Source: an uncultured Acidobacteriota bacterium
Lineage (GTDB): Bacteria; Acidobacteriota; Thermoanaerobaculia; UBA5066; Gp7-AA6
Direction: 5' to 3'
Length of the DNA stretch: 64,000 bases
NCBI GenBank assembly: GCA_963733955.1
Contig: CAVTEW010000003.1
Coordinates: 1,308,322-1,372,321 of the forward strand
Each line of letters starts with the position of its first letter. Positions within the stretch are counted from its first letter, which is position 1. The notes under the pieces were generated by a model. It was given only the letters and a program-made list of their open reading frames with translations. It did not search any database and was not told the DNA's origin. A program made the position numbers and the translations under genes. Below are positions 2,021-34,410 of this stretch, piece by piece.

Positions 2021-3053
2021 GCGTCTCCTCGACGGCGCCGGGCTCGAAGTGATCGTGGCCGATCTCGGAGACGTCGCGATCCCCGTGCCCGCCGCGGAGC
2101 ACGGCGCCGGATCCCTCCTCCACGCGGCCGATGCGGGTGATCGGCACCGGAGGGCGCTCGGGCGCCTCGGCCAGCCGGAGCTCGGCTTGCGCCGAGGCGG
2201 TAAACAGCAGCTCGTAGTCGTCGCCTCCCGCCAGGATCCACTCGATCGGGTCCAGGCCCTCCAGGTCCGCGAACGTCGTCAGGGCCGGATGGACCGGCAG
2301 GCGTTCCCGTTCCAGGACCAGTCGCACGCCCGAGGCGCGGGCCAGGCGTCCGGCGTCGACCCCGAGTCCGTCGGAGACGTCGATCGCGGAGCCGGCGGTC
2401 CGTTCCTGCGCCAGCCACAGGCCGAGGTCCACGCGCGGCTCCGGATCGCGGTAGGCGTTCAGAAGCTCGCGCTGCGCGACGGGCGACAGCCCGATCAGGC
2501 GCGGCGTCGGCGCCGAGCCCCGGCTCGCGAAGACGGCGAGACGGCGGGCCAGGCGCAATCCGGCCGCGGCGCGGCCGGGCCACCCGGACAGGAAGAGCAG
2601 GTCTCCGGGCTTCGCTCCGGACCGGGTCAGCGGCCGGGCCGGCGCGGAGCCGCACAGCGCGATGGAAACCAGCGTCACCGGCGCGTCGGACAGATCGCCT
2701 CCGACCAGGCGGAGCCCGAAAGGCTCGGCCCGGGACAACGCTCCGCGCGCGACGGCCAGCGGAAACTCCTCGCCGCGGTCCGACCGGAAGCCGATGGAGA
2801 GGAGAAAGAACTCGGGGCGCGAGCCCATCGCGGCCAGGTCGGAGAGGTTGACGGACAGGGCGCGACGGCCGATCGCCTCCGGCTCCTCATCGGAAAGGAA
2901 ATCGATCCCCTCGACGCACAGGTCCGTGGTCGCCACCACCGGGCCGGCCCAGGATTCGACCACCGCCGCGTCGTCGCCGGGACCGAGGGCGACTCCGGGC
3001 GCCGCAGGGAGCAGGGCTCGGAGCTTCTGGACGAACCGGTCCTCCGCCTTCAC
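2016..3053 (-). CDS. thiL: thiamine-monophosphate kinase
   Basis: GPGDDAAVVE, ATTDLCVEGIDF, NLSDLAAMG and GGDDYELLFT motifs typical of ThiL (AIR-synthase-related fold). GTG start. Confidence 0.85.
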   Translation of the reverse strand: MKAEDRFVQKLRALLPAAPGVALGPGDDAAVVESWAGPVVATTDLCVEGIDFLSDEEPEAIGRRALSVNLSDLAAMGSRPEFFLLSIGFRSDRGEEFPLAVARGALSRAEPFGLRLVGGDLSDAPVTLVSIALCGSAPARPLTRSGAKPGDLLFLSGWPGRAAAGLRLARRLAVFASRGSAPTPRLIGLSPVAQRELLNAYRDPEPRVDLGLWLAQERTAGSAIDVSDGLGVDAGRLARASGVRLVLERERLPVHPALTTFADLEGLDPIEWILAGGDDYELLFTASAQAELRLAEAPERPPVPITRIGRVEEGSGAVLRGGHGDRDVSEIGHDHFEPGAVEETR

Positions 3054-3140
3054 GGGGAGGCATTATTCACGAAGGCGCCGAGAACCGACAGGCAGGCCGC
3101 GTGAGGCGTAAGGCGTGAGGCGTGAGGCGGGACGTGGCCC

Positions 3141-3201
3141 GGTCGCGGCGCGCGTAGTCTCCTGAGCGGAAGCGAAGGAGGAGGCGCGCGCCGCGGGAGC
3201 C
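3141..3201. repeat. ~60-bp dispersed repeat, identical copy at 60351..60412, with an internal 10-bp GC stem (GCGGCGCGCG...CGCGCGCCGC)
   Basis: GGT(C)GCGGCGCGCGTAGTCTCCTGAGCGGAAGCGAAGGAGGAGGCGCGCGCCGCGGGAGCC is present at both loci, each next to GGCGTGA heptamer arrays. Confidence 0.85.
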
Positions 3202-3222
3202 GGAACGAAGTGGAGGCGACGT

Positions 3223-5700
3223 TTACGCCCGTGGCGCCGGAGTGGAACGACCCCTCGGGGCCGGCGCGACCTCCCGTGCCGGCGCCGCCGGAGGCGCGGG
3301 CATCGGCTCGGGGGCCGGCTTTTCGGCGGACACCGGGGGCAGGAGCGCGATCTCGAGCACCTCTTCGACCGTGTCGACGTAGCGGAACGTCATCTCGTGG
3401 ACCAGACGCGTCGAGATCTGCGTGATGTCCCGCCGATTGAGCCTGGGCAGCACCACCATCTTGATCTTGGCCTGGCGGGCCGCGAGCACTTTCTCCTTGA
3501 CGCCGCCGATGGGCAGCACTTCGCCGCGCAGCGTGATCTCGCCGGTCATCGCGACGTCGCGGCGGACCGGGCGCTGCGTGAAGGAAGAGATCATCGCCGC
3601 GGCCATGGTGATGCCGGCGGACGGCCCATCCTTGGGGATCGATCCCTCCGGAACGTGCACGTGCACGTCCCGCGTCTCGAAAAAGTCGTCGGCGATTCCC
3701 AGGTCGCGGGCATGGGCGCGGGCGTACGACATGGCCGCCTGCGCCGACTCCTTCATGACGTCCCCGAGCTGGCCGGTCAGGCGCAGGCTTCCCTTGCCGC
3801 GGACGGCCAGGGACTCGACGAACAGGAGATCTCCTCCGGTGGACGTCCAGGCCAGCCCCGTGGCGACGCCGACCTGGTCCTTCTTGAGGAGCTCGTCGGC
3901 GAAATGCTTGACCGGGCCGAGCATCTTCTCGACCGACGCGGAGGTGATCCGGTACCGGCGCGTCTTGCCCTTGGCCACGGACACGGCGACCTTGCGGCAG
4001 ATCGAGCCGATCTCCCGCTCCAGATTTCGCAGCCCGGCCTCGCGGGTGTAGGCCTCGATGACCTTGGCGAGCCCGCCCTCGGTGAATTCGAGGTTCGCCT
4101 CGGAGACCCCGTTCTCCTCCATCTGCTTGGGGATCAAGTGGCGGCGGGCGATCGCCTTCTTCTCCTCCAGCGTGTAGCCGGAGAGGCGGATGACCTCCAT
4201 CCGGTCGAGGAACGCGGGCTGGATCGGATCGAGAATGTTCGCTGTGGCGATGAACAGGACCCTGGAGAGATCGTAAGGGACTCCCAGGTAGTGGTCGCGG
4301 AACGAGAAGTTCTGCTCGGGGTCGAGCACCTCCAGGAGGGCCGAGCTCGGATCACCCCGGTAGTCCGCTCCGATCTTGTCGATCTCGTCGAGCATGAAGA
4401 CGGGGTTGGAGGTTCCAGCCTGGTGAATCCCCTGGACGATGCGGCCGGGCATGGCTCCGACGTAGGTGCGGCGGTGGCCCCGGATCTCCGCCTCGTCCCG
4501 CACGCCGCCCAGCGACAGGCGGACGAACTTGCGATCGAGGGCGCGGGCGATCGACCGTCCGAGCGAGGTCTTCCCGACTCCGGGCGGGCCCACGAAACAG
4601 AGGATCGGCCCCTTGAGGGTCTTCTTCAGCGCGTGCACGGCGAGAAACTCGAGGATCCGTTCCTTGACCTTTTCGATGTCGTAATGGTCCTCGTCGAGGA
4701 TCTGGCGCGAACGCTCGATGTCCTCGGCGTCGGAAGAGACCACGCCCCAGGGAAGCCCGGTCATCCAGTCGAGGTAGGTCCGGATGATGGCCGTCTCCGC
4801 CGAATCGGGGTGGCTGCGCTCCAGGCGCTTGATCTGCTTCTCGATCTCCAGCGCGGCCTCCGCGGTGATCTTCTTCTCCGTCACCAGCTCCTTGTAGTGG
4901 GAGAGCTCCTCGCTGATCTCTTCCCCTTCTCCGAGCTCCTGCTGGATGGCCCGCAGCTGCTGGCGCAGGTAGTACTCGCGCTGCGAGCGGTCCATCTCGC
5001 CGCGGGCCTGGGTGGAGATCTCCTGCTGCATGGTCAGGACGGTGATCTCCTTGGCCAGGCTGTCGTTGACCGCCCTCAAACGGTCGATCGGATCGACCGA
5101 TTCCAGGATCTTCTGGGCCTCTTCGAGCTTGAGGTCGAGGTTGGAGGCCGCCAGGTCGGCCAGGCGCGCCGGATCGTCCAGGTTGGCGGCGATGACCATG
5201 ACCTCGGGCGAGATGTTCTTGCCGAGCGAGACGGACTTCTCCAGGTTCTGCTTGACGCTGCGCACCAGGGCTTCCTGCTCGGGAGGGAGCTCCTTGGGGC
5301 TGTCGCGCTCCTCCAGCCGGGTGATCTTGGCCTTGAGGTAGGGCTCTTCGGCCAGGAAGGAGTCGACCCGCGCGCGGGTGAGACCCTGGACGAGAAGCCG
5401 GATGCGGCCGTCCGGGAGCTTGAGCATCCGCATGATGGCCACCACCGTGCCGACCGAGTACAGGTCCGCGGGGCGCGGCGTTTCGTTGGAGGCGTCCTTC
5501 TGCGCGACGAGCATGATGATGCGCTGCTCGGCGAGCGCGGCGTCGACGGCCTGGATCGACTTCTCCCGGGAGACCGAGAGCGGCAGGATGATGAAGGGGA
5601 ACACGACCACGTCCTTGAGCGGAAGGACGGGGAGGATGTCGGGGATCGGGAGCTCCTGGTCCCGCTCGGCGACGACCTCTTTCTCTTCTACTTCGGCCAT
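3223..5700 (-). CDS. lon: ATP-dependent Lon protease with a ~40-aa Pro/Ala-rich C-terminal tail
   Basis: Full-length Lon: N-terminal LON domain, Walker A GPPGVGKTS, and a C-terminal proteolytic domain containing PKDGPSAG. Confidence 0.95.
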   Translation of the reverse strand: MAEVEEKEVVAERDQELPIPDILPVLPLKDVVVFPFIILPLSVSREKSIQAVDAALAEQRIIMLVAQKDASNETPRPADLYSVGTVVAIMRMLKLPDGRIRLLVQGLTRARVDSFLAEEPYLKAKITRLEERDSPKELPPEQEALVRSVKQNLEKSVSLGKNISPEVMVIAANLDDPARLADLAASNLDLKLEEAQKILESVDPIDRLRAVNDSLAKEITVLTMQQEISTQARGEMDRSQREYYLRQQLRAIQQELGEGEEISEELSHYKELVTEKKITAEAALEIEKQIKRLERSHPDSAETAIIRTYLDWMTGLPWGVVSSDAEDIERSRQILDEDHYDIEKVKERILEFLAVHALKKTLKGPILCFVGPPGVGKTSLGRSIARALDRKFVRLSLGGVRDEAEIRGHRRTYVGAMPGRIVQGIHQAGTSNPVFMLDEIDKIGADYRGDPSSALLEVLDPEQNFSFRDHYLGVPYDLSRVLFIATANILDPIQPAFLDRMEVIRLSGYTLEEKKAIARRHLIPKQMEENGVSEANLEFTEGGLAKVIEAYTREAGLRNLEREIGSICRKVAVSVAKGKTRRYRITSASVEKMLGPVKHFADELLKKDQVGVATGLAWTSTGGDLLFVESLAVRGKGSLRLTGQLGDVMKESAQAAMSYARAHARDLGIADDFFETRDVHVHVPEGSIPKDGPSAGITMAAAMISSFTQRPVRRDVAMTGEITLRGEVLPIGGVKEKVLAARQAKIKMVVLPRLNRRDITQISTRLVHEMTFRYVDTVEEVLEIALLPPVSAEKPAPEPMPAPPAAPAREVAPAPRGRSTPAPRA

Positions 5701-5776
5701 GAGTCCAAGCTATCAGCTTTCGTCGAGGAACGGCGGCCCGCGGGCCTGGCGACGCCGCCGAACGGGCAGCGCAACG

Positions 5777-6244
5777 CTAATCCTCCTCGCCCTTGACCGA
5801 CAGCTCGTATTCCTTCTCCCGCTGATCGGGCACTCGAGGCAGCAGGACTTCCAGGAGGCCGTCCTTCAGGAACGATGTGGCTTGATGGGTGTTGACCGGG
5901 CGCGGCAGGGGCACCGACTTCACGAAGGCGCCGAAGTATCTCTCCATGCAGAAGAATCGCAGGCCCTCGCGCGAGCGGATGCGTCCCTTCTTCTGTCCCT
6001 TGACCGTCAGAACGCGGCCGCGCACGGTGACCCGCACGTCCGCGGACTCCACGCCGGGCAGCTCGATCAGGACGCGGATCGTCTCGCCGTCGTCCAGGAT
6101 GTCCACGCTCGGGTCCCAGGCCGTCGCGCTGGCGCCCACTCCCCGGTTGGCCTCCACGAACGCCGCGAACAGGCGGTTGATCTCCCCCTGGAGCCGCGAC
6201 AGCTCCACGATGGGCCCGTAGAGCTTGGCCGAGCGCTTTACCAT
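5777..6244 (-). CDS. Hsp20/alpha-crystallin family small heat-shock protein
   Basis: WDPSVDILDDGETIRVLIELPGV...ERYFGAFVKSVPLP alpha-crystallin-domain pattern. Confidence 0.9.
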   Translation of the reverse strand: MVKRSAKLYGPIVELSRLQGEINRLFAAFVEANRGVGASATAWDPSVDILDDGETIRVLIELPGVESADVRVTVRGRVLTVKGQKKGRIRSREGLRFFCMERYFGAFVKSVPLPRPVNTHQATSFLKDGLLEVLLPRVPDQREKEYELSVKGEED

Positions 6245-6250
6245 TTGAAT

Positions 6251-6327
6251 GAGGCGAGAGGCGTAAGGCGCAGCTCAACGCTCCCGGCTCCCGTTCGCCT
6301 CACGCCTGACGCCTTACGCCTAACGCC
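6251..6327. repeat. GGCGTRA heptamer arrays in inverted orientation (hairpin-forming) between hsp20 and nrdR
   Basis: GAGGCGAGAGGCGTAAGGCG ... CGCCTCACGCCTGACGCCTTACGCCTAACGCC. Confidence 0.8.
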
Positions 6328-6332
6328 CTGTG

Positions 6333-6800
6333 TCATACCTTCGTCTCCGCCCGGCCGATCAGGCCCTTGAGCTCGTTCAAGAATTCGTCCACATCTTCGA
6401 ACTTTCGGTAGACCGAGGCAAATCGGACGTAGGCCACCTTGTCGAGCTCGCGCAGGCGCTCCATCACCAGCGCGCCGATTTCCCGGGTGGCCATCTCGCG
6501 CTCCTCGGTGTCGTGGAGGCGCGACTCGATCTCGTCGACGATCGAGTCCAGGCGGGCCGGGGGCACCGGCCGCTTCTCGCAGGCCTTGGCCAGGCCCGCG
6601 CGCAGCTTCTTTCGGTCGAAGGTTTCCCGGCGGCCGTCGTTCTTGACCGCCATGTAGGGGATTTCCTCGATGGTCTCGTAGGAGGTGAAGCGCCTTCCAC
6701 ACGACACGCACTCCCGGCGCCTGCGGATGACCTCGCCTTCCCGGCTCTCGCGGGAGTCCACGACGCGGTCGTCGACGCCGCTGCAGAAGGGGCATTTCAT
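6333..6800 (-). CDS. nrdR: transcriptional repressor NrdR
   Basis: MKCPFCSGVDDRVVDSRESREGEVIRRRRECVSCGRRFTSYE zinc ribbon followed by an ATP-cone. Confidence 0.9.
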   Translation of the reverse strand: MKCPFCSGVDDRVVDSRESREGEVIRRRRECVSCGRRFTSYETIEEIPYMAVKNDGRRETFDRKKLRAGLAKACEKRPVPPARLDSIVDEIESRLHDTEEREMATREIGALVMERLRELDKVAYVRFASVYRKFEDVDEFLNELKGLIGRAETKV

Positions 6801-6803
6801 ACG

Positions 6804-6886
6804 GGGCGTAAGGCGTGAGGCGTAAAGCGTAAGGCGATGGCGACGGCGACGGGGCGTGAGGCGTGAGGCGTGAAGCGTAAGGCGAA
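6804..6886. repeat. tandem GGCGTRA heptamer array upstream of nrdR
   Basis: GGCGTAAGGCGTGAGGCGTAAAGCGTAAGGCG...GGCGTGAGGCGTGAGGCGTGAAGCGTAAGGCG. Confidence 0.8.
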
Positions 6887-6911
6887 CATGGCTGAACTTA
6901 TCTTGCCCCTT

Positions 6912-7940
6912 CTAGGAATGGCCGTCCACCGCTTCGCGCTTCTGGATCTCCGCTTCCGCCGCCCGGGCCAGCGCCCGCTCGCGGCCGGACAGGGCGAGCA
7001 GGGTCAACCCGATCAGGGTGATCAGGATGAACGAGGTGGCCCAGGCCAGGATGGCCACGCCGGCGGCCGCGTCGGCGCCGACCCCGAACACCTTCTTGAG
7101 CGTTTCGGCCACCGCGGCCTGGTAGGAGCCCAGCCCGCCGGGCGTGGGCACCGCCAGCCCCAGAACGGCCGCCGCCGTCACGACGAACGAGGCGGGAAAC
7201 GGCAGGCCGAGATGGAAGGCCCGCAGGACGCTGTAGATCTGGAGATTGATGACGAGCCACATCCCCAGGGACCCAGCCGTGATCGCCAGCAGCAGGGGGG
7301 GACTCTTCAAAGAGGCGAACCCGTCGATGAAGGTGGTCGAGAAGGCCGCGACCTTCGGCTGGATCCGAGCCGGAAGGCGGCGCCAGATCTTTTCCAGCAG
7401 GCGCTCCGTCGCGCTCCGGCGAAAAACCGCGAAGAGGGCCAGGGCCACGAGCGCGCCGAGGACGGCCGCGGGCAGGAGGCCGACCAGGCCGAGGCTGCCC
7501 TTGCGCCCCGGCTCGAGCCAGACCGCCAGGAGGAGATAGAAGAGGACCGAGGCTCCGTCGAAGACGCGCTCGAGCGCCACGGACGCGAGCAGGGGAGAAA
7601 AGGGGAGTCCCTCCGACCGGGCCAGAAGCGCCGGGCGCAGAACCTCGCCGACCTTGCCGGGAAGGTTGTTGGCGGCGAATCCGACCGCGGTGGCCTGGAA
7701 CGCCGGGTAGACGCGCACACGCGCCACCGGCCGAAGGATCCAGGTCCAGCGGACGGCCCGAAAGACGAACGTGCCGACTCCCAGGAGGAGGCTCGCTCCG
7801 AGCCAGCCCGGGGAGGTCGAGAGGACGGCGTCCCTGGTCCTTCGCAGATCGATGCCCCGGATGAAGAACCAGAGCAGAAGGACCGTCAACGCCAGGGAGA
7901 TGGCGATCTTTCCGGCATGGGAGCGGACGGTCGGTTTCAC
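6912..7940 (-). CDS. flippase-like / lysylphosphatidylglycerol-synthase TM-region (UPF0104) membrane protein
   Basis: Multi-pass membrane protein with NNLPGKVGEVLRPALLA motif. Confidence 0.7.
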   Translation of the reverse strand: MKPTVRSHAGKIAISLALTVLLLWFFIRGIDLRRTRDAVLSTSPGWLGASLLLGVGTFVFRAVRWTWILRPVARVRVYPAFQATAVGFAANNLPGKVGEVLRPALLARSEGLPFSPLLASVALERVFDGASVLFYLLLAVWLEPGRKGSLGLVGLLPAAVLGALVALALFAVFRRSATERLLEKIWRRLPARIQPKVAAFSTTFIDGFASLKSPPLLLAITAGSLGMWLVINLQIYSVLRAFHLGLPFPASFVVTAAAVLGLAVPTPGGLGSYQAAVAETLKKVFGVGADAAAGVAILAWATSFILITLIGLTLLALSGRERALARAAEAEIQKREAVDGHS

Positions 7941-8089
7941 GGGTTTTCGACTTTTCAGGGGCTTTCGGCGTCCCTTTTTAGCACCTGTGAGTGCGTTTTG
8001 CCTAAAAAAATGAGGCTAAGGCGAGACGGAGCTTGACTTTCCATCGAGATTTTCACATTCTTTTCTTAAATTTTCGGGGAGGATTGCGC

Positions 8090-9856
8090 ATGTCCAGGAA
8101 GGTGCCCTCGTCTCTGGCCCTTCTCCTCGGTGCCGGGTGGCTTTTCGCTCAATCGGCGAACGCCGACGTCATCGGTGTGATCGATACACCGAGCCAGAAC
8201 CAGACCGTCTCCGGCGTCGTGCGGGTCTCCGGCTTCGCGCTGGACTTCACCCCGATTTCCAAGATCGAGATCCTGGTAGACGGGGTCATCGTGAACCAGG
8301 CCGATCTGAACATTCCCCGGGCCGACGTCCTGGAGGTGTTCCCCAACTATGTCGGCAGCCCGACGAGCAACCCCGGCTTTCTCTCGTCGTTCCTGGCGCG
8401 CAACTATGGCGACGGCCTGCACTCCCTGACCGTCAAGGTCACCGAGTCGACCAACGCGGTCACGCTGCTGGGGCCGGTGTCGGTCAACATCGACAACAAC
8501 ATCAACCAGGCCCCCTTCGGCTACATCGACATTCCCGGGCCGACCGGCACGCAGGGCGCCAACGGGTCCTTTCCCGTGGCCGGCTGGGCCGTCGACGACC
8601 AGGACATCGACCACATCGACTTCTTAGTCGACGGTGAGGTGGTGGCCGGCGCGGTCGGCCGGGGAGAGCCCTCGAGCGCCGTCTTCGGTTCGCCCCGCCC
8701 GGACGTCTACGCCGCGTTCCCGGACTTTCCCGGGCCGGCGCCCAAGTCCTTGTTCTCCGGGTTCATCGCCAACATCGACACCACCCGGTTCCTGGACGGC
8801 CTGCACGTCATCACCGTGCGCGCCTTCGATAACCAGGGGCTCTCGAGCCAGATCGGAACGCGGACCGTCCAGGTGGAGAACAACGGGTCGAATCTGACGC
8901 CGTTCGGGCGCATCGATTTCCCGCTGGACAAGGCGTCGCTGCTCTGCTCGGCGCCGGCTCCGCCGTCCTGTCCCTCCCCGTGCACGCAGCCGCAGAGCAC
9001 CGATATCCCGAATCTGACCAAGGGATGGGCGCTCGACACGGGAGCCCGTCTGGATAAGGGCCAGGTCGCCTACGTCGAGCTCCTGATCGACGGCGCGATC
9101 ATCGCCAACACCCGGAGAGACTGCGTCCTCTCCAACAGCGTGTTCTACAACTGCTACGGGGTGAACCGCCCCGACGTCGCCCAGCTCTTCCCCGGCTACG
9201 TCAACGCGGACAACGCGGGCTTCAACTTCGTGTACTACTTCCGGCAGAATCCCGCGAGCGGGCAGTTCGACATCCTGATCCCGAACTCGACGCCGACGTC
9301 GTCCTTCACCCCGAACCTGACCGCCACGGGCAGCATCACCAGCGGCAAGCACACCATGGCCGTCCGCGTCGGCGACGACCACGAGACGGTCATCGAGCTC
9401 GGAGCGATGTCGTTCGACGTCGTCTGCGACCTGGTCACCGGCGACGTGCCGGCGATCGGCTACATCGACGGCCCGGCGCCCTACGAGTTCGTGCAGGGGA
9501 TCATTCCGGTCAACGGCTGGGCCTTCGACTTCAACGGCATTCACACCAACTCGAGCGGCGTGGTCAACGGAGTCGAAGTGGACATCGACGGGCAGGTGGT
9601 GGCTTCGGCGACCTACGGGATCTTCCGGCCCGACGTTCCGATCAACGATCCGCGGGTGGGAAGCAATCAGCACACCGGGTATCTCTACAACCTCGACACC
9701 ACCAAGCTGACCGACGGCGAGCACGAGGTCGTCATCTACGTGGTCGACTCCTCCGGCACGGTCAATCCGCCGCTGACCCCGCCGAGCCTCTTCCGACGCA
9801 CCGAGATCGGCCGGCGCAAGTTCGTGGTTCAGAACAACGTGCTGATCAACCACTAA
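8090..9856 (+). CDS. secreted protein with four tandem ~130-aa beta-sandwich-like repeats (family not assigned)
   Basis: GGAGG RBS 8 nt upstream of ATG 8090. Signal peptide MSRKVPSSLALLLGAGWLFAQSANA. Four repeats share G(Y/R)ID.P...GWA.D...I..(I/V)..VDG...RPDV..FP. Confidence 0.6.
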   Translation: MSRKVPSSLALLLGAGWLFAQSANADVIGVIDTPSQNQTVSGVVRVSGFALDFTPISKIEILVDGVIVNQADLNIPRADVLEVFPNYVGSPTSNPGFLSSFLARNYGDGLHSLTVKVTESTNAVTLLGPVSVNIDNNINQAPFGYIDIPGPTGTQGANGSFPVAGWAVDDQDIDHIDFLVDGEVVAGAVGRGEPSSAVFGSPRPDVYAAFPDFPGPAPKSLFSGFIANIDTTRFLDGLHVITVRAFDNQGLSSQIGTRTVQVENNGSNLTPFGRIDFPLDKASLLCSAPAPPSCPSPCTQPQSTDIPNLTKGWALDTGARLDKGQVAYVELLIDGAIIANTRRDCVLSNSVFYNCYGVNRPDVAQLFPGYVNADNAGFNFVYYFRQNPASGQFDILIPNSTPTSSFTPNLTATGSITSGKHTMAVRVGDDHETVIELGAMSFDVVCDLVTGDVPAIGYIDGPAPYEFVQGIIPVNGWAFDFNGIHTNSSGVVNGVEVDIDGQVVASATYGIFRPDVPINDPRVGSNQHTGYLYNLDTTKLTDGEHEVVIYVVDSSGTVNPPLTPPSLFRRTEIGRRKFVVQNNVLINH

Positions 9857-25807: not shown

Positions 25808-26308
25808 ATGTCGACGGAGTTCCCCCAGACCGCCCGGCAAGTCGTCGAGTCGGTCCTGTTGGATCCTCAGGAACGCAAGAAACTCGTCGGTTTCGCCGGA
25901 GCGCGCTACGGAATCCGGGAAGAGGACGCTGAGGATCTGCTTCAGGAAACCGCCCTGGAGCTCCTGCGGCAGCGGCACTCCGTGAGGAGCCCCCAGGCCT
26001 ACCTGTTCACCGTTTTCAAGAACCGCTGCGTGCGGTTCTTCCGGACCCGCAAGCGGCAGGCCGCCGTCGAGCTCGACGAGCAGATGCCTGACCCGACGTC
26101 GGTCGCGGCGGGGGAGAAGCGGGAACGTCATCTGGCCGTCCGCCAGGCGCTGTGCCGAATCTCGTCCGCTTGCCGAAAGCTCCTGGCGTCCTTCTACGTC
26201 GAAGGCAAGAGTCTCAAAGAAACGTCGGCGGAGAGCACGTATGCTTTCAGCGGGATGGGCAATACGATCAATCGTTGCCTGGAGAGACTTCGCGCATGCA
26301 TGGAATGA
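25808..26308 (+). CDS. ECF sigma-70 family factor
   Basis: Region 2 EDAEDLLQETALEL and region 4 LKETSAESTYAFSGMGNTINRCLERLR. Confidence 0.8.
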   Translation: MSTEFPQTARQVVESVLLDPQERKKLVGFAGARYGIREEDAEDLLQETALELLRQRHSVRSPQAYLFTVFKNRCVRFFRTRKRQAAVELDEQMPDPTSVAAGEKRERHLAVRQALCRISSACRKLLASFYVEGKSLKETSAESTYAFSGMGNTINRCLERLRACME

Positions 26309-27693
26309 CGCAGCACCTCGACGACTTCACCCTGCTGCGTTACGTCGCGGGTGACCTGGACGCGTCGGAACGAACTGCGGCGTCCGAACACCTCGATGCC
26401 TGCGCCCCCTGCAAGGCAACCCACCGCGAGATCGAAGAATTGGACGAGGAGCTGAAGGCGATCGCGCAGGATCCGTCCACGCGGCTGGACTTCGAGGTCG
26501 AGGAGCTGCCGGAGGAGGATCCGTTCCTAAGGCGGCCACGACGGGAGTCTCGCATGCGCCGCCCCAATCGGGACACGCCGATGGCGAGCGCCCTCGAAGC
26601 CTCCGAGGAAGGGGGAGTGCTCTCCGGAACTGTTCTGTCCGCGATCAAGGGCTGTCCTGAAGATCTGCAATCTCTTGTCGATCGCCTGGATCTTACGGAC
26701 TTGTCTTATCGCTTCGCGCTTCTCTACGGCCTTCAGGAGGCGGGGAAGCGGATCTCGGAAGCCCCTTACCGGATTCTGCGATCAGCCGAGTCCTTGTTGG
26801 AGAAGCTCCGTCGAGACGGTCCGAGTGCCGACCGGATCGTCCCGGAGGAGCTCCTGAACGGTCAGATCCATCAGCTTGCCGGTAGTGCATGCCTCTGGAC
26901 GGGGGAATACGACAAAGCGGGTACTCACCTGCATTTGGCGTACGAGTACCTCGGTACGACGAGCGACGACACTTCGCTCGCAGTCGTCGAGCTGTTCGAG
27001 GCTCAGCGTCGATCGTTCTTGGGACGTGGGAACGAAGGACTGGCCCTCGCGCGCCGCTCGTTCTCGACCTTCGAGTTGTTCGAAATGAGGGACTACATGG
27101 CTCGCGCCCGGGTCGTCATCGGGCTTGCGCTCTTCGATCTCGGCAAGTACCAGGAAGCAGTGGAGTCCTATCGTCTGGCGATTCCAACCTTCGAGTCCGA
27201 AGGCCTTTGGGCGAACTATGTCGGGGCCGTCAACAGCGTCGCCACGGCCTTGGAGCGCCAGGGAAATCTCGACGGCGCACGCCGAGAGTTCGCGCGCGCC
27301 CTGAAGCGAGTCTCCCGTGAACGGGACCGCGCCTTCGTCGCCGCTATCCGAAAGGGGCTGGCCGAAGTTCTCTTCTCCGCGAAACGGTATCGCGAGGCGG
27401 CGATCGCATCCTCCCAAGCCGGTCGCCTCTATGGCGAAACGAAACAACTTTACTTTCGGTTGTGGGCCCTGCTCTTCGAGATCGAGAGTTGGGCCCGGGC
27501 CGGTGAGGCCGACCGCGCCTGTCACCGCCTCGACCTGTTCCGATCGGAGGTTGCCCGTCTCGGAGCGCTGGATGGATCGATCTGCCGAAACATCGAGTCG
27601 GCTCTCAAGGGTGAGCGTCAGGACTTTGCCGCGATCGCGCTCTTGAGGACAGAGGCCTCGGAGACCCTCAAGGAGCGTTTGCTCGGCGCTTAG
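26296..27693 (+). CDS. anti-sigma factor: zf-HC2 N-terminus with a cytoplasmic TPR-like C-terminal domain
   Basis: LLRYVAGDLDASERTAASEHLDACAPCKA. Overlaps the sigma stop by 13 nt. ORF 26152.. over-extended. Confidence 0.7.
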   Translation: MHGMTQHLDDFTLLRYVAGDLDASERTAASEHLDACAPCKATHREIEELDEELKAIAQDPSTRLDFEVEELPEEDPFLRRPRRESRMRRPNRDTPMASALEASEEGGVLSGTVLSAIKGCPEDLQSLVDRLDLTDLSYRFALLYGLQEAGKRISEAPYRILRSAESLLEKLRRDGPSADRIVPEELLNGQIHQLAGSACLWTGEYDKAGTHLHLAYEYLGTTSDDTSLAVVELFEAQRRSFLGRGNEGLALARRSFSTFELFEMRDYMARARVVIGLALFDLGKYQEAVESYRLAIPTFESEGLWANYVGAVNSVATALERQGNLDGARREFARALKRVSRERDRAFVAAIRKGLAEVLFSAKRYREAAIASSQAGRLYGETKQLYFRLWALLFEIESWARAGEADRACHRLDLFRSEVARLGALDGSICRNIESALKGERQDFAAIALLRTEASETLKERLLGA

Positions 27694-28066
27694 CCTCCGA
27701 TACCAAGACCCCCCCGAAAAAATCTGTCAAAAAGCGCCCCTTCCTAGGCACGTACTAGGTCGGAAGGCGGCCATGGAGCGCTCCACTCCGCTTCCAGATT
27801 CCCCGCCCAGCGCGGGAACCAAGGAGGTTGTGTGTGAACGCCGAAAATACGCCTGTTCCGGCCTGAATCTCTGGCCCCCGTCGGTCCGGCTCGCGCGGGC
27901 CGGGCCGGCGGCCTTCGTTAGGTCAGCTCAACCCCGTGTCCGGTTGGCGATCGGCTAATAATCGACCGCGTGACTGGAGGGCGACGCAGCAGGCGACGTG
28001 GGTCGGCTTCTCGACGATCGTCATCGCAGGATGACGTTGGAACCGGTCCAGGGAAGTCCCTCAGAC

Positions 28067-28377
28067 GATCCACGGAAGCCTTCTATCGCGAGTATTTTCT
28101 GCCGCTCGTCCGCCGGGCGACCTGGCGGCACGGACTGTCCTCCGACGACGCCCGGGATATCGTGCAGGACGCCTTCCTGATCGCGCTCGAGAAAATGGAT
28201 TTCGCCAGAAGCCTGGAAGCCTGGATCCTCTAGAGGGGCGCGGCCGGCCATCGAGGAAGAGAAAATGATCCCCGAAGGCATCGCGGCTTACGGCCTTCTC
28301 GGCGAATCCGTCCGCCGCCGTCAGATCAACCGCCAGGCCCTGCGCGATCTTCACGGCTACTTCCGCCACGATCGCTG
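28067..28377 (+). pseudogene. decayed remnant of a sigma-region-2-only / TPR-partner cassette: a region-2 fragment, then a 38-aa C-terminal partner fragment
   Basis: FYREYFLPLVRRATWRHGLSSDDARDIVQDAFLIALEK (28067-28233) resembles the 30974 gene product. MIPEGIAAYGLLGESVRRRQINRQALRDLHGYF (28264-28377) matches the C-terminus of the 31353 protein (KMVPEGMAALALLRQSLRNHRINREALRNLHGYF). Confidence 0.55.
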
Positions 28378-28494
28378 ACCACTGCGGGCTTCAAATCCGC
28401 CGCCCGTCCTCGGGACCTGGGAACCCTCTCACGGAGCACGGCTTACTCCTCGCGACACTAAGTTAGGTAGAGGATTGCTCTGAGAGGAGGGACC

Positions 28495-29670
28495 ATGCGG
28501 AGTCGGACCGCGGTCGCGGCATCGATCGTCGGCATTTTTCTCAGTCTTCCAGCAGTCGGTCGGCAGGCTCTTGCGAGTGCGGATGCGGGCGGCCAGAGCC
28601 CAGCGGCCGGCCTCCACCGATCGGCGACGAAGCCAGAGAACGTCGCGGCGAGCAATACCTGGTTCTACACGATCCGCGACGAGAACAACCGGCCGGCGAT
28701 CGAGTATCACCTCGGCCAGGCCGGCAACGTCATCACCGATCGCATTTACGCCTACCTCGGCAACACATTGGTAGCCACCTACGAGGCGAGCGGCAATTCG
28801 CCCGGGTGGGTTTACTACGGCACCGATCACCTGGGCTCCGTGCGGACCGTGATGTCCGGTACGACCTGCACGCAGCAGTTCCAGCCTTTCGGCGAACCGG
28901 CCGGGCAGAGCTGCTCAACTGGCAGCCCGGTCAAGTTTGCCGGCATGGAACGAGACTCGACCTCTGGCAACGACTACGACCATGCGAGGTTCCACGGGGG
29001 GGGGAGCACGCTGGGACGGTTCCTCGGTCCTGACAAGCTCCAGGGTCATCCTGCCGATCCGCAGTCCTGGAACCGTTACGCATACGCCCGGAACAGCCCG
29101 GTCACTCTCATCGATCGCAATGGCATGGAGTTCGGCTCGCCGGGTGGAGGTGCCGAGCTGCACACGGCTGTCCTAAACTTTGAGGCGACCTACCATCACA
29201 GCGAGCCGGCGATGGCTGAGCTCGGCCAGTCGGTCGCCCTGCAAGAGACCCTTGGTCCCGTGGGAACGGCGGCTGTGCTCATCTCTGGCGCCGGCCCTGC
29301 GGTCAGACTCATCTCAGAGATCTCGAGCATTCGGCCTCCCACTGCTCCGCGCGAGGCCGATTCGAACACGCTAGGGCCCGGCCCGTACTCGGGCAGATCG
29401 ATTCCGGCTCGTGGAGAGCAACGCAATTTCACCGTAGCAGAGCGATCTCAAATTAACGAGGCAGGTTCAGAAACCGGCTGTCATACCTGCGGTACAAAGG
29501 TTCCAGGAACAAAGAGCGGAAATTTCGTTCCCGACCATCAGCCTCCGAACGCGCTCAACGAGCCGGGCGAGCCGCAACGTCTGTATCCGCAATGCATAGA
29601 CTGCAGCCGGCAGCAGGGCCTTCAAATCATCCGCACATTGAAGGACGTCCTGGGACCGCCCGTGAAATGA
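28495..29670 (+). CDS. small secreted RHS-repeat-associated-core toxin: signal peptide, RHS core, then an HNH/EndoVII-like nuclease-type C-terminal tip (putative)
   Basis: Signal peptide MRSRTAVAASIVGIFLSLPAVG. The core (WFYTIRDENNRPAIEYH...YYGTDHLGSVR...FAGMERDSTSGNDYDHARFHGGGSTLGRF) is near-identical to the core of the giant rhs. C-terminal CHTCG...DHQPP...CIDC motif. Confidence 0.8.
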   Translation: MRSRTAVAASIVGIFLSLPAVGRQALASADAGGQSPAAGLHRSATKPENVAASNTWFYTIRDENNRPAIEYHLGQAGNVITDRIYAYLGNTLVATYEASGNSPGWVYYGTDHLGSVRTVMSGTTCTQQFQPFGEPAGQSCSTGSPVKFAGMERDSTSGNDYDHARFHGGGSTLGRFLGPDKLQGHPADPQSWNRYAYARNSPVTLIDRNGMEFGSPGGGAELHTAVLNFEATYHHSEPAMAELGQSVALQETLGPVGTAAVLISGAGPAVRLISEISSIRPPTAPREADSNTLGPGPYSGRSIPARGEQRNFTVAERSQINEAGSETGCHTCGTKVPGTKSGNFVPDHQPPNALNEPGEPQRLYPQCIDCSRQQGLQIIRTLKDVLGPPVK

Positions 29671-29677
29671 TCTGGCC

Positions 29678-30325
29678 GTGAGCTCCGAAGAGGTCGTGGT
29701 TCTGGCGGAAGGTCTCCGGGCCCGCACCGTTGGTCTTCGCCGAGCGGGTCGTCCCGAGGTGGCTGTCGCCGTTGACGACGCCGCGCTAATGCCTGAAGCG
29801 GAGCGGTTTCTCGGCTTCGTGTCGAGATACATCCTGAGGGCGAAAGTCACGATTAGAGACGGCGAGACGCTGGCGTACGGCTACTGGTTGACGAAGTTCG
29901 TCGCGGTTAACGCCGGAAACTTGGACGTATGGGAGTACGCTAGCTCGGGTACTCACTTCTCTCCGGGCGCCACTCTTACGCTGACGTACTGGCGCGAGCA
30001 ACACGCCATTTGCGAGAAAGCCGGGACCGAGTTCAGGCCGCCCCGTCCGGATGAGCTCGCGGCCGTATCCCCAGCAGTTCTCGAGGGCGCGTCCGTTCAG
30101 GGCGTCAGATACCCGAGCCCCGCACCGATGTCAGGGTGGTGGATTACCGCCGACGACTACACCGGCGACATCAAGATGCTGGGGACGGAACATCTCTATC
30201 ACCTGACGGACCTGCGCCCGGATCTGGCACGGTACCTGGCGCTGCCGCAGGGCTTCAGGTTCGATCTTGCCAACTACGAAGACGTGTGGTTCGATCGAGC
30301 GGTGGCCGACCAATCTGCGATCTGA
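29678..30325 (+). CDS. putative cognate immunity protein of the orphan toxin
   Basis: Starts 8 nt after the toxin stop. No recognisable enzyme motif. Assignment by position only. Confidence 0.45.
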   Translation: MSSEEVVVLAEGLRARTVGLRRAGRPEVAVAVDDAALMPEAERFLGFVSRYILRAKVTIRDGETLAYGYWLTKFVAVNAGNLDVWEYASSGTHFSPGATLTLTYWREQHAICEKAGTEFRPPRPDELAAVSPAVLEGASVQGVRYPSPAPMSGWWITADDYTGDIKMLGTEHLYHLTDLRPDLARYLALPQGFRFDLANYEDVWFDRAVADQSAI

Positions 30326-30361
30326 CCGCCCGCCCCGAAATCTAGCGACGCTAGAGCAACC

Positions 30362-30895
30362 GTGAGCCATATCGGCCTTTTGGCATGGGTCGAAGAACAT
30401 CTGAAGCCTTTCGGCTCGGAACGGCAGCCCCGATCAAGACGGACTCCCAATACCCGTTGCTACCCGGTCGTTTCCCACCTTGTTGACTGCACTTTGGAGG
30501 TCGGGTACTCTCCTCGCGCTGCAAGGGCAAGGATTCTAGATTTGGCGCAGCGCCGCGCGGAGGTTGACTCCGTCTTCCGCCACTCGCTCGGAGCGATCCA
30601 CTTCGCGCTGGTGGACCTTTACCTGCTGAGCGAAGCAGGGGCTGCGGAAGTCGCCGGGAATCTCTACGTCTGGTTTGAACGATTCGCCGAACGCGGGAGC
30701 AGGAGGGAGATGCCCGTTTCGACGCTTCGTTTCCCGTTGCTGCTCGCCGCGTGTCAGGCCGGCGTCGCGGCGAAGCAGCGCGAGCTTCGCGGAGGGTCCT
30801 GCGTGGAAGCGGGATTGCGGGAGACACTCGCTCGAGCGCCGGAGGACGTGGCGCGGGAATTAGCGTTGAAGCTACCGCTTGGCAATGACATGTAA
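30362..30895 (+). CDS. hypothetical protein (possible second immunity or cassette accessory protein)
   Basis: ORF only. Lower local GC. No motif recognised. Confidence 0.35.
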   Translation: MSHIGLLAWVEEHLKPFGSERQPRSRRTPNTRCYPVVSHLVDCTLEVGYSPRAARARILDLAQRRAEVDSVFRHSLGAIHFALVDLYLLSEAGAAEVAGNLYVWFERFAERGSRREMPVSTLRFPLLLAACQAGVAAKQRELRGGSCVEAGLRETLARAPEDVARELALKLPLGNDM

Positions 30896-30973
30896 GCTAC
30901 TGCACCCAAATCACTTCGCACTCGCGACATATAGCTGTTAGGAAGGTGCTTTGAACGACGGCATCGCATTCGC

Positions 30974-31336
30974 TTGAGCGGATGGAAGGGGCGATTCTCG
31001 CCCTCGCGCCGGGTGGCTTCACGCCGGGTTGTCAGCCCCGAGAAGCTCGAGGAATTCCATCTCAAGTTCTTTCTGCCCCTCGTGCGGCGAGCGATACGGC
31101 GGCATGGACTTTCGAACGAGGATGCCCGTGACGTTGTTCAAGAAGCTTTTGTCGTCGCGCTCGCCAAGCTCGGCTCAACCAGCTATGCCCTGGCTTGGTT
31201 GAAGCAGGTCGTGGACTTTCAGTCGATCAATCTGAAGCGGACGTCCGCGCGCCGAGCACGGCTCCTTGCGCAGTGGGCTGGAACGAGTCTTCCCGAAGGT
31301 TCCACTCTGCTCGAAGTCCCGGCGGACGAAATCTGA
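30974..31336 (+). CDS. sigma-70 region-2-only protein (no region 4)
   Basis: FFLPLVRRAIRRHGLSNEDARDVVQEAFVVALAKL...AWLKQVVDFQSINLKR matches sigma70_r2. The protein ends ~40 aa later with no region 4 helix-turn-helix. Confidence 0.6.
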   Translation: MSGWKGRFSPSRRVASRRVVSPEKLEEFHLKFFLPLVRRAIRRHGLSNEDARDVVQEAFVVALAKLGSTSYALAWLKQVVDFQSINLKRTSARRARLLAQWAGTSLPEGSTLLEVPADEI

Positions 31337-31352
31337 CGTGCGGAGTAATCAA

Positions 31353-32957
31353 ATGGCCACCCAGATGATGAGAGATCAGATCGCTGCGTGGCTCGAAGCC
31401 ACTCGAGGCATTGAGCTCGTGGTGGGGCTCGACGCGAAAGAGGCGGAACGGCGGGCGCTCGCGCTACTCGCGGCGATCCTGGAAAATCGGATCTCGCCCG
31501 ATTCTATGGTCCTCGACGAGGAAGCCAAGCAGGTCCTCTCAATTCTCGTCAGGCAGCTCGCCGAGTTGAACGCGGATAAAGGCGATCGTCTCCGCCAAGC
31601 GGCTGCCGTTGCGAGATTTATCGGTCGCCTTCGATGGTCCGATGACAACTTCGGCGAGAAGGAGGATCTTCTTCTCGAATGCGAGCAGGTTGGCCTCGGT
31701 GAGGACGGGATAACTCTTGGAGGAACCCCACCGAACACTCCGGAGTTCGAAGTCCACGCCGGCAAAGTGGATCCGATCAAAAGCGAGTCTCTGCAGCTCC
31801 AGATCGGCCTGGCCCCCACATTCCCGGTCATCGGTGGAGGGGAGAATACCAATTCGTCAAGGTCTGGTCGGCCGCGCCGGCGGCTGCTCTCCGAGAATCA
31901 GGCGAGCGAGGCGGCCGAGCGAACTTTGGCAATTCCAATTTCGGAGCGCGCGGGCAAGGAGATCGAGCTCCGGCTCGAAGCGCCGGAGACACTGTTGGCC
32001 ATGAGCGGCCTCCTGCGTGCGCGCCTGGATGTATCGCCGGCGACGGCCCGCGAGGAGGCGGATTACCTCTATCGGTTCCTGGACAAGCCGAAGCGGGAAA
32101 TCGGGCTCTTCGACGAGAGAGATTATTTCCTTGGCGAGATGGCGTTGATCGCGGCGACGGCGTGCAGACACCTCTCACTTCGTGAAGATTCCAAGCGCTG
32201 GCTCGATCGATCCGAGGCCGGGTTCCGCAAAACGATCAACGGGGCCGCGGAATGGGCGCGGGTCTCGTATCAGCGGCTGGCCTTGAGAATGGAGGAGCGG
32301 GAGTTCGAAGAGGTCTTGAGTCTGGCTCCATCTCTCTTCGATGATCTGGTCAACCGAGGCATGGGGGAGCACGCAATCAAGTGCCGATTCTTGGAGGGTG
32401 GAGCGCTGATCGAGATGGGCCGACTGGCGGAGGCGGTGAAAATCTTCGAGAGCCTCTGCGAGCATTGCGCACTTTTGAAGAACGAGAACCTTCTTGCAGG
32501 CGCTTACACGAACCTGACCCATTGCCATGCTCTACTCGGTGAATCGAAGGAAGCGCTCTCGGCCTCAAAGGAGGCTTCTCGGCTCTTACGGCGGGCCGGT
32601 GACCGGATCGGCTTGGCAAAGCTTCAGTGGTTCCTCGGAAATCTTCTTCGCGAACAGCATCAACTCACCGCAGCAATAGAGATTTATCGCTCGGCGCAGA
32701 GTGAATTCAGCGAGCTCTCCATGCAGGCCGACGTCGCGGCGATTCACCTGATCGTGGCGGATCTCATGCTGGAGCTCGGCCAGGACGCCCAGGCCCGCTG
32801 GGAGATCCAGGCGGCGCTTCCGGTGATCGACGAGAAGAAGATGGTGCCGGAAGGCATGGCGGCCCTTGCCCTCCTTCGCCAGTCCCTACGAAATCACCGC
32901 ATCAACCGCGAGGCGCTGCGAAACCTGCACGGATACTTCGAGGATCTGGGCTCTTAA
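31353..32957 (+). CDS. TPR-like partner protein (similar to the C-terminal domain of the 26296 anti-sigma; lacks zf-HC2 and TM)
   Basis: ATG 31353 (MATQMMRDQIAAWL). Alpha-helical TPR-like C-terminal half. Its C-terminal tail is repeated in the 28264 remnant. Confidence 0.6.
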   Translation: MATQMMRDQIAAWLEATRGIELVVGLDAKEAERRALALLAAILENRISPDSMVLDEEAKQVLSILVRQLAELNADKGDRLRQAAAVARFIGRLRWSDDNFGEKEDLLLECEQVGLGEDGITLGGTPPNTPEFEVHAGKVDPIKSESLQLQIGLAPTFPVIGGGENTNSSRSGRPRRRLLSENQASEAAERTLAIPISERAGKEIELRLEAPETLLAMSGLLRARLDVSPATAREEADYLYRFLDKPKREIGLFDERDYFLGEMALIAATACRHLSLREDSKRWLDRSEAGFRKTINGAAEWARVSYQRLALRMEEREFEEVLSLAPSLFDDLVNRGMGEHAIKCRFLEGGALIEMGRLAEAVKIFESLCEHCALLKNENLLAGAYTNLTHCHALLGESKEALSASKEASRLLRRAGDRIGLAKLQWFLGNLLREQHQLTAAIEIYRSAQSEFSELSMQADVAAIHLIVADLMLELGQDAQARWEIQAALPVIDEKKMVPEGMAALALLRQSLRNHRINREALRNLHGYFEDLGS

Positions 32958-33809: not shown

Positions 33810-34378
33810 CAATCCTCCTCTTTCCCAGGACGCGCCCGAGCGGCGTCCGGACCCCAGTAGGCGAGAAGCGTGGCACGGCGGCCGCGCTTTCGGTTGAAGT
33901 TGAGGACGAGCCGTTCGACAACGCCCTCGAGCCATGCTCGCGTGTCTTTCAGAGGCCCCGTCCTTTCGAGGAGAACCACGAACGCCTCCTGAACGACATC
34001 CTCCGCGTCTTCGGGCGGGAGGCGGTGCTTCCAGCGCACTTCGATCGCGAGTTCCTTGAAGAGAATTGCGTATGAGCCATTGAGCTCCTTGAATCTCAGC
34101 TCGTCCGAAGCTCGAAAGGCGCTGCGCCAGCGCAGAGGGCTCCGCCTCGCCCTGGCTCGGGCCGCCGCGCCCGCTCCTCGCCCTTCGGTCGCGCGCATGC
34201 TTTCGTGGGTGCTCTTCGACATAGTAGTGTCGCGAGCCCCAAATCCTTTTTCCTGAGAACGTTCCAGAGCATACAACGAACGGCGGTCTCGGCAAGCCGC
34301 GCTTGGTCGGTGGCCAGAAGCCTGTCCGAGCACTCTCGCGCAACTTGCTGCGTGCCTGTCGGTTCTCGTTCGCGACAC
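33809..34378 (-). CDS. sigma-70 region-2-only protein (second paralog; true start may be an internal Met near 34225)
   Basis: PPEDAEDVVQEAFVVLLERTGPLKDTRAWLEGVVERLVLNFNRKR region 2, no region 4. Confidence 0.55.
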   Translation of the reverse strand: MSRTRTDRHAASCARVLGQASGHRPSAACRDRRSLYALERSQEKGFGARDTTMSKSTHESMRATEGRGAGAAARARARRSPLRWRSAFRASDELRFKELNGSYAILFKELAIEVRWKHRLPPEDAEDVVQEAFVVLLERTGPLKDTRAWLEGVVERLVLNFNRKRGRRATLLAYWGPDAARARPGKEED

Positions 34379-34410
34379 TAAGAAGGTAGAGAAACCAGTT
34401 ACGAGGGTCG

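Follow-up and report, generated by a model that had tools for sequence, protein, structure and literature searches.

A shell-less, chimeric Rhs-core toxin candidate with an HNH-type tip and an Imm33-like immunity gene in an uncultured acidobacterium

The locus and its gene pair

The genes described here lie on contig CAVTEW010000003.1 (assembly GCA_963733955.1) of an uncultured member of the Acidobacteriota (lineage Gp7-AA6), within a stretch of 64,000 nucleotides (nt) that was analysed as a whole and is hereafter called the window; positions are those of the window unless another locus is named. At 28495-30325, two adjacent open reading frames (ORFs) encode a protein of 391 amino acids (aa), referred to as the small protein, and a protein of 215 aa (Table 1). 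Both had been proposed in an initial annotation made from the DNA letters, and both are present, although 7 nt, instead of the 8 nt first given, separate the TGA stop of the toxin gene (29668-29670) from the GTG of the next gene. The small protein is well described as five successive pieces, namely a signal peptide, a spacer, three hairpins with an Rhs core that together form a "plug", a linker, and a domain of the HNH/EndoVII type. As judged from sequence comparisons, the reading of 28495-30325 as a complete polymorphic-toxin cassette, i.e. a shell-less chimeric Rhs-core toxin with an HNH tip followed by an Imm33-like immunity gene, is well supported.

The first gene comes with signals of its own. 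The N-terminus of its product, MRSRTAVAASIVGIFLSLPAVGRQALA followed by SA after the predicted cleavage site, follows the n/h/c scheme of Sec signal peptides, in that it contains two Arg, a hydrophobic core of 17 residues, and an A-x-A site. The Sec-type signal peptide of the initial annotation was thus recovered by rule, AlphaFold2 (AF2) confidence is low over aa 1-27, as a signal peptide would give, and short homologues display a similar N-terminal signal feature.

Orphan modules that pair an rhs C-terminal tip with an immunity gene (rhs-CT/immunity) are found downstream of main rhs genes in E. coli and Salmonella, and include WapA-CT2 of S. suis (PMC12704120). The small gene resembles them in that both combine a short core end homologous to the main gene with a different tip and an own immunity gene, and both are products of tip recombination. 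However, orphan modules have neither a start nor a secretion signal, whereas the small gene has a ribosome-binding site (RBS), an ATG, a signal-like N-terminus, and a cis box shared with other genes of its island (see below), and it is located 4.7 kb upstream of the main rhs gene on the same strand rather than downstream. The earlier view that this gene is unlike a classic orphan was therefore borne out.

An Rhs core preceded by three shell hairpins

The Rhs-derived part of the small protein corresponds to the very end of an Rhs shell. Its three YD hairpins (aa 55-129) share 75% identity overall with aa 2585-2748 of the giant Rhs protein encoded further downstream, and were modelled as beta hairpins with a predicted local distance difference test (pLDDT) score of 86-91; the predicted fold of aa 55-200 as a whole resembles an Rhs shell. 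The RHS core named in the initial annotation is present, with a TIGR03696 match in NCBIfam above the cut-off (E=3.2e-12, 46.8 bits vs 32.5). Searches of the 391-aa protein against Pfam and NCBIfam returned no RHS_repeat, YD_repeat, or any other Pfam match, whereas the giant ORF matches both repeat models, and on this basis we consider the small protein to be shell-less. The original statement that it has no YD shell hence holds as far as the repeat models go, but has to be amended for the three terminal hairpins that are kept. Canonical Rhs/YD-repeat polymorphic toxins share with the small gene a core, a variable C-terminal toxin, and a cognate immunity gene directly downstream, but they build a large beta-shell from many PF05593/TIGR01643 repeats (~1000 aa), where the small protein offers only these three hairpins.

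The core ends in DRNGM (aa 207-211, 29113-29127), in place of the DPSGL of the giant Rhs. Rhs cores typically include two DPxGL-type aspartyl-protease motifs, the second of which provides the catalytic Asp of Rhs1 (PMC8636562). Both aspartates, Asp180 (in PDKLQ) and Asp207 (in DRNGM), are retained in the small protein and nearly invariant in alignments, while the Pro and Leu of DPxGL are replaced. The divergence from DPSGL pointed out in the initial annotation is thus real. As a sign of decay it was rejected: the counterpart of DRNGM is DKNGL on a 1792-aa full-length Rhs protein with a Sec signal (locus L066, metagenome contig Ga0126383_10002916), and DRNGL, DRDGR, or DPTGM in relatives, so that the divergent cleavage motif is better seen as a feature of the cassette. 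The pre-toxin linker that follows (~80 aa) is conserved with the L066 cassette over its first ~40 aa, and variable and predicted to be disordered over the remainder.

A C-terminal domain of the HNH/EndoVII type

The C-terminal domain is ~95 aa long and includes the two CxxC pairs flanking DH...N that had been noticed initially, as C329-x2-C332, D347-H348, N355, and C367-x2-C370. Across alignments of 15 and 94 members of the domain family, C329, C332, D347, H348, Q349, C367, C370, S371, and Q374 are invariant, and N355 nearly so. In an AF2 model based on the 94 sequences (pLDDT 88.4), the domain consists of a helix, two strands, and a long helix, with the DH at the end of strand 1, and the modelled layout is that of the beta-beta-alpha-metal (HNH/EndoVII) fold. 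Fold layout and CxxC/DH/CxxC/Q signature are therefore in agreement with the HNH/EndoVII-like nuclease candidate put forward in the initial annotation.

Database matches to known HNH families were sparse. No Pfam HNH family (PF01844, HNH_2-5, GH-E, AHH etc.) matched the 391-aa protein at E<=0.1, and the tip had no match in a PDB profile search, in NCBIfam, or in a Foldseek search against PDB. A Pfam scan of the 94 domain members yielded a single weak match, to HNH_5 (E=0.058), and a weak hhalign comparison to a canonical PF01844 tip (E=2e-3, probability 13%) aligned CxxC/DH/CxxC in register.

A closer counterpart is provided by the NGO1392-like (Tox-SuFu-Nuc) HNH clade described by Zhang et al. 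2012, the signature of which is "CxxC, DH, CXXC, Q" (PMC3482391). This clade, which includes MafB of Neisseria gonorrhoeae, is carried by RHS, HINT, and signal-peptide toxins, and is partnered with Imm-SuFu, Imm13, Imm21, Imm33, and Imm38 (PMC3482391). The tip family of the small gene shares with it the HNH/EndoVII fold, the signature, the Imm33 and Imm21 partners, and the carrier types; it differs in that the tip has no Pfam or NCBIfam model, and in that the commonest partner in our sample is a third, unnamed immunity type. Assignment of the tip to the NGO1392-like clade by its match to the published signature, partners, and carriers is thus well supported.

A search of cluster representatives at 50% identity gave a domain family of 1378 clusters for E<=1e-3, of which 138 reached E<=1e-30. 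In every case the domain was C-terminal, in host proteins of 100-2679 aa that included long Rhs proteins, PT-HINT proteins, and others. Given this length range, the impression that the toxin is mainly found on short proteins was rejected as an artefact: the homologue listing first used extended only to matches ~1.75 times as long as the query (313 aa at a query length of 179 aa, 371 aa at 212 aa), which biased the lengths taken from it.

The immunity gene and the partners of the toxin family

The 215-aa protein contains an Imm33-like domain (aa 107-206; PF24719, E=2e-25, 89.1 bits vs a cut-off of 27) behind an N-terminal domain that weakly matches DUF4261, and has no signal peptide. Homologues are encoded directly after a related toxin in L065 and L066 (57% and 63% full-length identity, respectively), a two-domain homologue occupies the same place in L146, and a one-domain version with 44% identity is found in L005-7. 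The Imm33-like domain and the 57-63% identical genes following related toxins elsewhere substantiate the earlier proposal that this is the immunity gene.

We surveyed the partners of the toxin domain in 128 retrieved loci whose sequence continued for 700 nt or more past the toxin, considering the first 1.5 kb and counting all loci without de-duplication. In 123 of these, one of three immunity types was detected: an unnamed ~120-aa type (65 loci), the Imm33-like type, either in two-domain form (33 loci) or as the Imm33-like domain alone (4 loci), and Imm21, by itself (18 loci) or with an Imm33-like domain (3 loci), for totals of 40 Imm33-like and 21 Imm21 loci. The unnamed gene (MK..ITF.PPNSL.LV.D...) follows the HNH toxin in, e.g., L001 (8924-9292), L002 (3384-3749), and 63 other loci, and has no Pfam match; its product is probably a third immunity family of this toxin clade.

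The small gene as a chimera

Comparisons along the small protein gave opposite gradients for two sets of relatives. Amino acid identity to the giant Rhs, and to a fragment from a close relative of it (L067, like L066 from metagenome Ga0126383), is 87-93% over aa 56-115 and ~53% past aa 176. Identity to the L066 Rhs is instead low over aa 56-145, 73-80% from aa 146, and 67-93% in the toxin. Synonymous divergence (dS) from the giant gene increases along the module from 0.45 to 1.27 and then 2.5, and the ratio of non-synonymous to synonymous divergence (dN/dS) is about 0.1-0.15 all along the Rhs segment, indicating purifying selection. The joint between giant-type and L066-type sequence was placed at about aa 146-176, i.e. 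inside the core. From ~aa 186 onwards, the tip is like that of L066 (75-80% identity, including D(K/R)NG(L/M)EFG.PGGGAELHTAV and the HNH domain), although in L066 the YD shell is complete and the core contiguous with it, where the small gene has three hairpins and a core. These alignments lend good support to the small gene being a chimera, in which the end of a giant-type backbone would have been joined within the core to an HNH and Imm33 cassette. They likewise support well the view that it was built by ordinary Rhs tip recombination, with a tip cassette entering a local backbone.

At the nucleotide level, the only homology to the giant gene links 28641-29086 to 42168-42610, with 77.6% identity over 446 nt and a longest identical run of 32 nt. 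With homology on one side only and the small gene ahead of the giant in the same orientation, the giant would lose its shell in a single crossover rather than gain a new tip, and the usual deletion route to orphan activation would fail. The suggestion that the small gene is a cassette stored for swapping is thus less likely than it would be for classic orphans.

An origin by internal deletion was also considered and could not be demonstrated from sequence, because the first 47 codons have no significant similarity to the 5' end of the giant gene (p~0.07-0.11 in shuffles, four scoring schemes); a "KPENV/KSENV" match between the two 5' ends is ambiguous, which leaves the upstream box as the one significant similarity. 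By analogy, a second full-length rhs that lost an internal stretch in frame could have given rise to the small gene. No exact copy of the 391-aa protein was found in databases, where the best genome match had 39% identity over the full length and the best metagenome match 53%.

Short and split Rhs formats in other bacteria

The small protein is not alone in its format. At least 12 cluster representatives are ~300-aa proteins composed of a signal peptide, a TIGR03696 core, and this HNH tip, in which the signal peptide ends 2-5 residues ahead of the core start (V.Y.H.D..GSP). In four independent loci, hosted by Pseudoxanthomonas sp. UTMC 1351, Lysobacter sp. CA199, L064, and the marine L005-7, such a short gene comes after a gene for a core-less YD-repeat protein of 850-1850 aa, the two genes overlapping by 4 nt or being separated by no more than ~23 nt. 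The short subunits of these split Rhs loci, from soil and marine metagenomes, Pseudoxanthomonas, and Lysobacter, are like the window gene in their signal peptide, core, HNH tip, and downstream immunity gene. They differ in that their signal peptide abuts the core and they follow a core-less YD gene, whereas the window gene has a 27-aa spacer and three hairpins, and a sigma/TPR remnant (where TPR stands for tetratricopeptide repeat) upstream. No core-less YD shell gene is found within the window, and the giant has its own tethered core. The giant Rhs of the window looks like a fused form of the split arrangement.

Short forms also stand alone, i.e. without a shell gene, in L065, L146, and L147, the last with two in tandem, and those of L065 and L146 are accompanied by a two-domain immunity gene like that of the window. 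In L065, the short form adjoins a pair of tyrosine recombinases and a 211-aa Imm33-like gene. Two successive units are in fact present in this locus (2043-9553), each including a tyrosine-recombinase pair, a short toxin gene, and an immunity gene; the toxin of the first is GH-E, and that of the second is composed of a signal peptide, half a core, and the HNH domain. These units look like recombinase-associated toxin cassettes. The literature searched included no published description of short or split Rhs forms.

Genomic context of the gene pair

The gene pair belongs to an island of ~25.8-45 kb in which the GC content at third codon positions (GC3) is 0.69-0.82, compared to 0.87-0.95 in the flanks, and which includes four ORFs with a sigma-70 region 2 alongside TPR or other partners. 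The truncated one, just upstream of the small gene, is part of a remnant (27970-28376) in which a clean deletion junction at ~28229-28240 joins the first 87 codons of a sigma-like gene directly to the 3' end (~45 codons) of a TPR gene, with a loss of ~1.6 kb. Both pieces are paralogous to an intact sigma/TPR pair at 30974-32957: 28081-28189 is 71.6% identical to 31055-31163, and the translated TPR end (...IEEEKMIPEGIAAYGLL...LRDLHGYF) can be aligned to the C-terminal end encoded by ORF 31266-32957. Compared to these intact paralogues, dN/dS is 0.29 for the sigma and 0.16 for the TPR piece at a dS of 1.4-1.6, which places the deletion late relative to the divergence, and shows that a low dN/dS is no proof of present function. 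It is well supported that the sigma/TPR-rhs module of the giant was duplicated, and that the small gene sits in a copy that has partly collapsed.

The conserved upstream box reported initially was found before both rhs genes (28450-28472 and 34370-34392) as TCGCGACACTAAG(TT/A)AGGTAGAG, identical but for one indel, amid flanks that are otherwise unalignable (z=8.3, 0/500 shuffles). A longer-spaced version (30922-30945) is located ahead of the sigma-like gene at 30974; on the minus strand, a half-site (34228-34235) abuts the divergent sigma-like gene at 34222. The pattern CGCGACA-N(1-14)-AGGWAG has 3 occurrences vs 0.08 expected. The order of TPR end, box, ATG, and rhs is equal at both rhs genes. 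A scan of 27600-31000 for sigma-70-type promoters found none, and the box is unlike the sigma-70 consensus and, in our judgement, unlike the usual -35/-10 spacing of extracytoplasmic function (ECF) sigma factors. We read the box as a putative cis-regulatory element of the island, which argues for transcription of the small gene. Separately, a TCGCGACA...AGG(A/T)AG-like sequence is located at 3593-3616 of L066, before an AraC-like gene and the rhs operon.

Other island genes are noted for completeness. The 120- and 137-aa sigma ORFs are too short for a region 4; among the three short sigma ORFs, the gene next in line encodes a TPR protein in one case and is a 254-aa ORF of no assigned family in another. 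In the giant Rhs (34411-43248), the YD repeats end at ~aa 1395 and the final hairpins and core are at aa 2585-2748, with ~1,100 aa of He_PIG/Ig-like and FG-GAP-like repeats and a Pro/Gly/Asp-rich linker inserted in between; its tip is CDI_toxin_EC869_like. A 143-aa ORF (43245-43676) overlapping the giant stop is probably its immunity gene, and a 108-aa ORF thereafter (43761-44087), with no family match, may be an orphan immunity gene. Behind the Imm33-like gene of the cassette, a 177-aa ORF (30362-30895) had no Pfam or NCBIfam match and no counterpart beside the L066 cassette; membership of the cassette is thus doubtful, and it may be an orphan immunity gene or a spurious ORF.

Table 1. Features of the gene pair, its paralogous module and neighbours in the window, and short genes of split Rhs loci elsewhere
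Feature	Position	Strand	Evidence or remark
Toxin ORF, 391 aa, ATG start	28495..29670	+	ORF list
Immunity ORF, 215 aa, GTG start	29678..30325	+	ORF list, PF24719 match
Shine-Dalgarno AGGAGG, 4 nt 5' of toxin ATG	28485..28490	+	Direct sequence reading
Signal-peptide-like N-terminus, aa 1-27, predicted cleavage between ALA and SA	28495..28575	+	Rule-based reading
Gly/Ala/Pro/Ser-rich spacer, aa 28-54	28576..28656	+	Similarity to giant N-terminus p~0.07-0.11 (shuffles)
Terminal three YD hairpins of Rhs shell (giant-type backbone), aa 55-129	28657..28881	+	Giant-Rhs alignment, AF2
RHS repeat-associated core, aa 130-211	28882..29127	+	TIGR03696
Pre-toxin linker, aa 213-292	29131..29370	+	L066 comparison, predicted structure
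C-terminal toxin domain, aa 293-391, predicted HNH/EndoVII type, signature CxxC / DH / CxxC / Q	29371..29667	+	AF2, alignments
Cis box TCGCGACACTAAGTTAGGTAGAG before small rhs	28450..28472	+	z=8.3
Paralogous module in giant Rhs (aa 2585-2748 of ORF 34411-43248)	42163..42654	+	75% aa identity
Truncated sigma-70 region-2 ORF, 87 aa	27970..28233	+	PF04542 E=2.7e-5
TPR-gene remnant, last ~45 codons	28235..28376	+	28237-28363 69% identical to 32813-32939
Sigma-70 region-2 ORF, 166 aa, then zf-HC2/TPR anti-sigma-like protein	25808-26308		
177-aa ORF, family unassigned, between immunity gene and next sigma-like gene	30362..30895	+	GC3 0.69
Sigma-70 region-2 ORF, 120 aa	30974-31336		
Sigma-70 region-2 ORF, 137 aa	33809-34222	-	
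Short genes in split Rhs loci, immunity gene next	L001/L011 8001-8927; L031 9920-10837; L064 8001-8885; L005 8001-8936		

Discussion

The cassette at 28495-30325 is of the ordinary bacterial-warfare kind, in a less usual cage-less format that recurs in other bacteria. We lean slightly towards a functional toxin, with box-driven transcription, Sec export, cytoplasmic immunity, and possible self-cleavage after DRNGM freeing a predicted DNase. In such a scheme, the box shared with the giant rhs and a sigma-like gene would drive transcription of the small gene, and the RBS of the gene itself would serve for translation; the immunity protein would inhibit the nuclease in the cytoplasm of the producer, and Sec would export the precursor. 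The core may then cut after DRNGM to yield a ~180-aa fragment of linker and HNH domain, which would kill non-immune relatives through DNA degradation. Delivery to the target would be the weakest step of this mechanism, and without a shell the toxin would not be encapsulated.

Several observations weigh against a functional toxin. The signal peptide was called by rule, the core motif is DRNGM instead of DPxGL, and a 160-aa shell fragment may neither fold nor cleave by itself. In the toxin domain, Ser371/Gln374 stand where HNH nucleases canonically have their third metal ligand, an H/N behind the second CxxC. Truncated Rhs copies tested elsewhere were not delivered, although these were without a signal peptide (PMC12704120). 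Finally, no close relative of the genome was found that would show conservation of the short form, a low dN/dS is also expected after a recent deletion, and, with the adjacent sigma/TPR pair clearly destroyed by deletion, the small gene could just as well be what a deletion left behind.

The corresponding alternative, which we regard as less likely but still a serious contender, is that a second full-length rhs lost its shell by in-frame internal deletion, leaving a relic or orphan-type cassette with an undeliverable toxin. The immunity gene would then have been kept as a protection against neighbours with a matching HNH tip, and the remainder perhaps as raw material for recombination. This would account for the clean sigma/TPR deletion remnant immediately upstream, for a module order that equals that of the giant gene, and for the presence of a matching cassette on the full-length L066 Rhs. 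The three extra hairpins and the spacer, where conserved short forms start at the core, also resemble accidental deletion end-points, dN/dS is 0.16-0.29 even in the dead sigma/TPR remnants, and in S. suis a truncated WapA copy without a signal peptide was not delivered (PMC12704120). Yet similarity between the first 47 codons and the 5' end of the giant is not significant, the ORF, RBS, signal-like N-terminus, invariant toxin residues, and cis box are all intact, and stand-alone genes for a signal peptide, core, and HNH tip are conserved with matching immunity genes in other lineages.

It is improbable that the small protein is a payload acting in trans, whose exported core and toxin would dock into the YD shell of another polypeptide, as TcC completes TcB. 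The four split Rhs loci point in this direction, as do a giant Rhs that resembles a fused version, its core tethered by the long Pro/Gly/Asp linker past Ig-like and FG-GAP-like domains, a structural part that is 87-93% identical to that of the giant and under purifying selection, and the cis box common to both rhs genes. However, the tethered core and toxin of the giant would fill its shell in cis, the window includes no core-less YD gene, and trans assembly is itself hypothetical for split Rhs. The parallel to the ABC (Tc) toxins is also partial: TcC contributes about half of the cocoon, where the small protein has only three hairpins and a plug, and no TcA or TcB gene adjoins the small gene. 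We would give little weight to the small protein as a member of an undescribed class of Sec-exported "plug + payload" subunits that are inserted into a YD shell after export.

Very improbable is a tip that is no nuclease but a zinc-ribbon or treble-clef module with another activity or a binding role: the Ser371/Gln374 replacement, the lack of Pfam HNH and Foldseek matches, and the low hhalign probability would fit, but the modelled order, with the DH closing strand 1 ahead of strand 2 and a helix, is that of beta-beta-alpha-metal nucleases, exactly CxxC, DH, CxxC, Q defines the NGO1392-like HNH clade, and the immunity partners are those of HNH toxins.

The Rhs cage is thought to be necessary, as it shields the producer and the core protease works within it. 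A recurrent cage-less class combining signal peptide, core, and toxin hence raises the question of whether Rhs plug and payload can be supplied in trans, or whether these toxins act cage-free. If the former were true, Rhs could be a two-gene system analogous to TcB/TcC, and the giant or another shell would deliver a second toxin (HNH) without DNA rearrangement. By itself, the small gene may be a mere relic of normal rhs-locus recombination and decay; it nevertheless represents an accessible example for this question, with a clear toxin, a clear immunity gene, and a full-length comparator in L066. Beyond this locus, a large toxin-domain family outside of Pfam and NCBIfam, along with its unnamed major immunity partner, should be useful for annotation.

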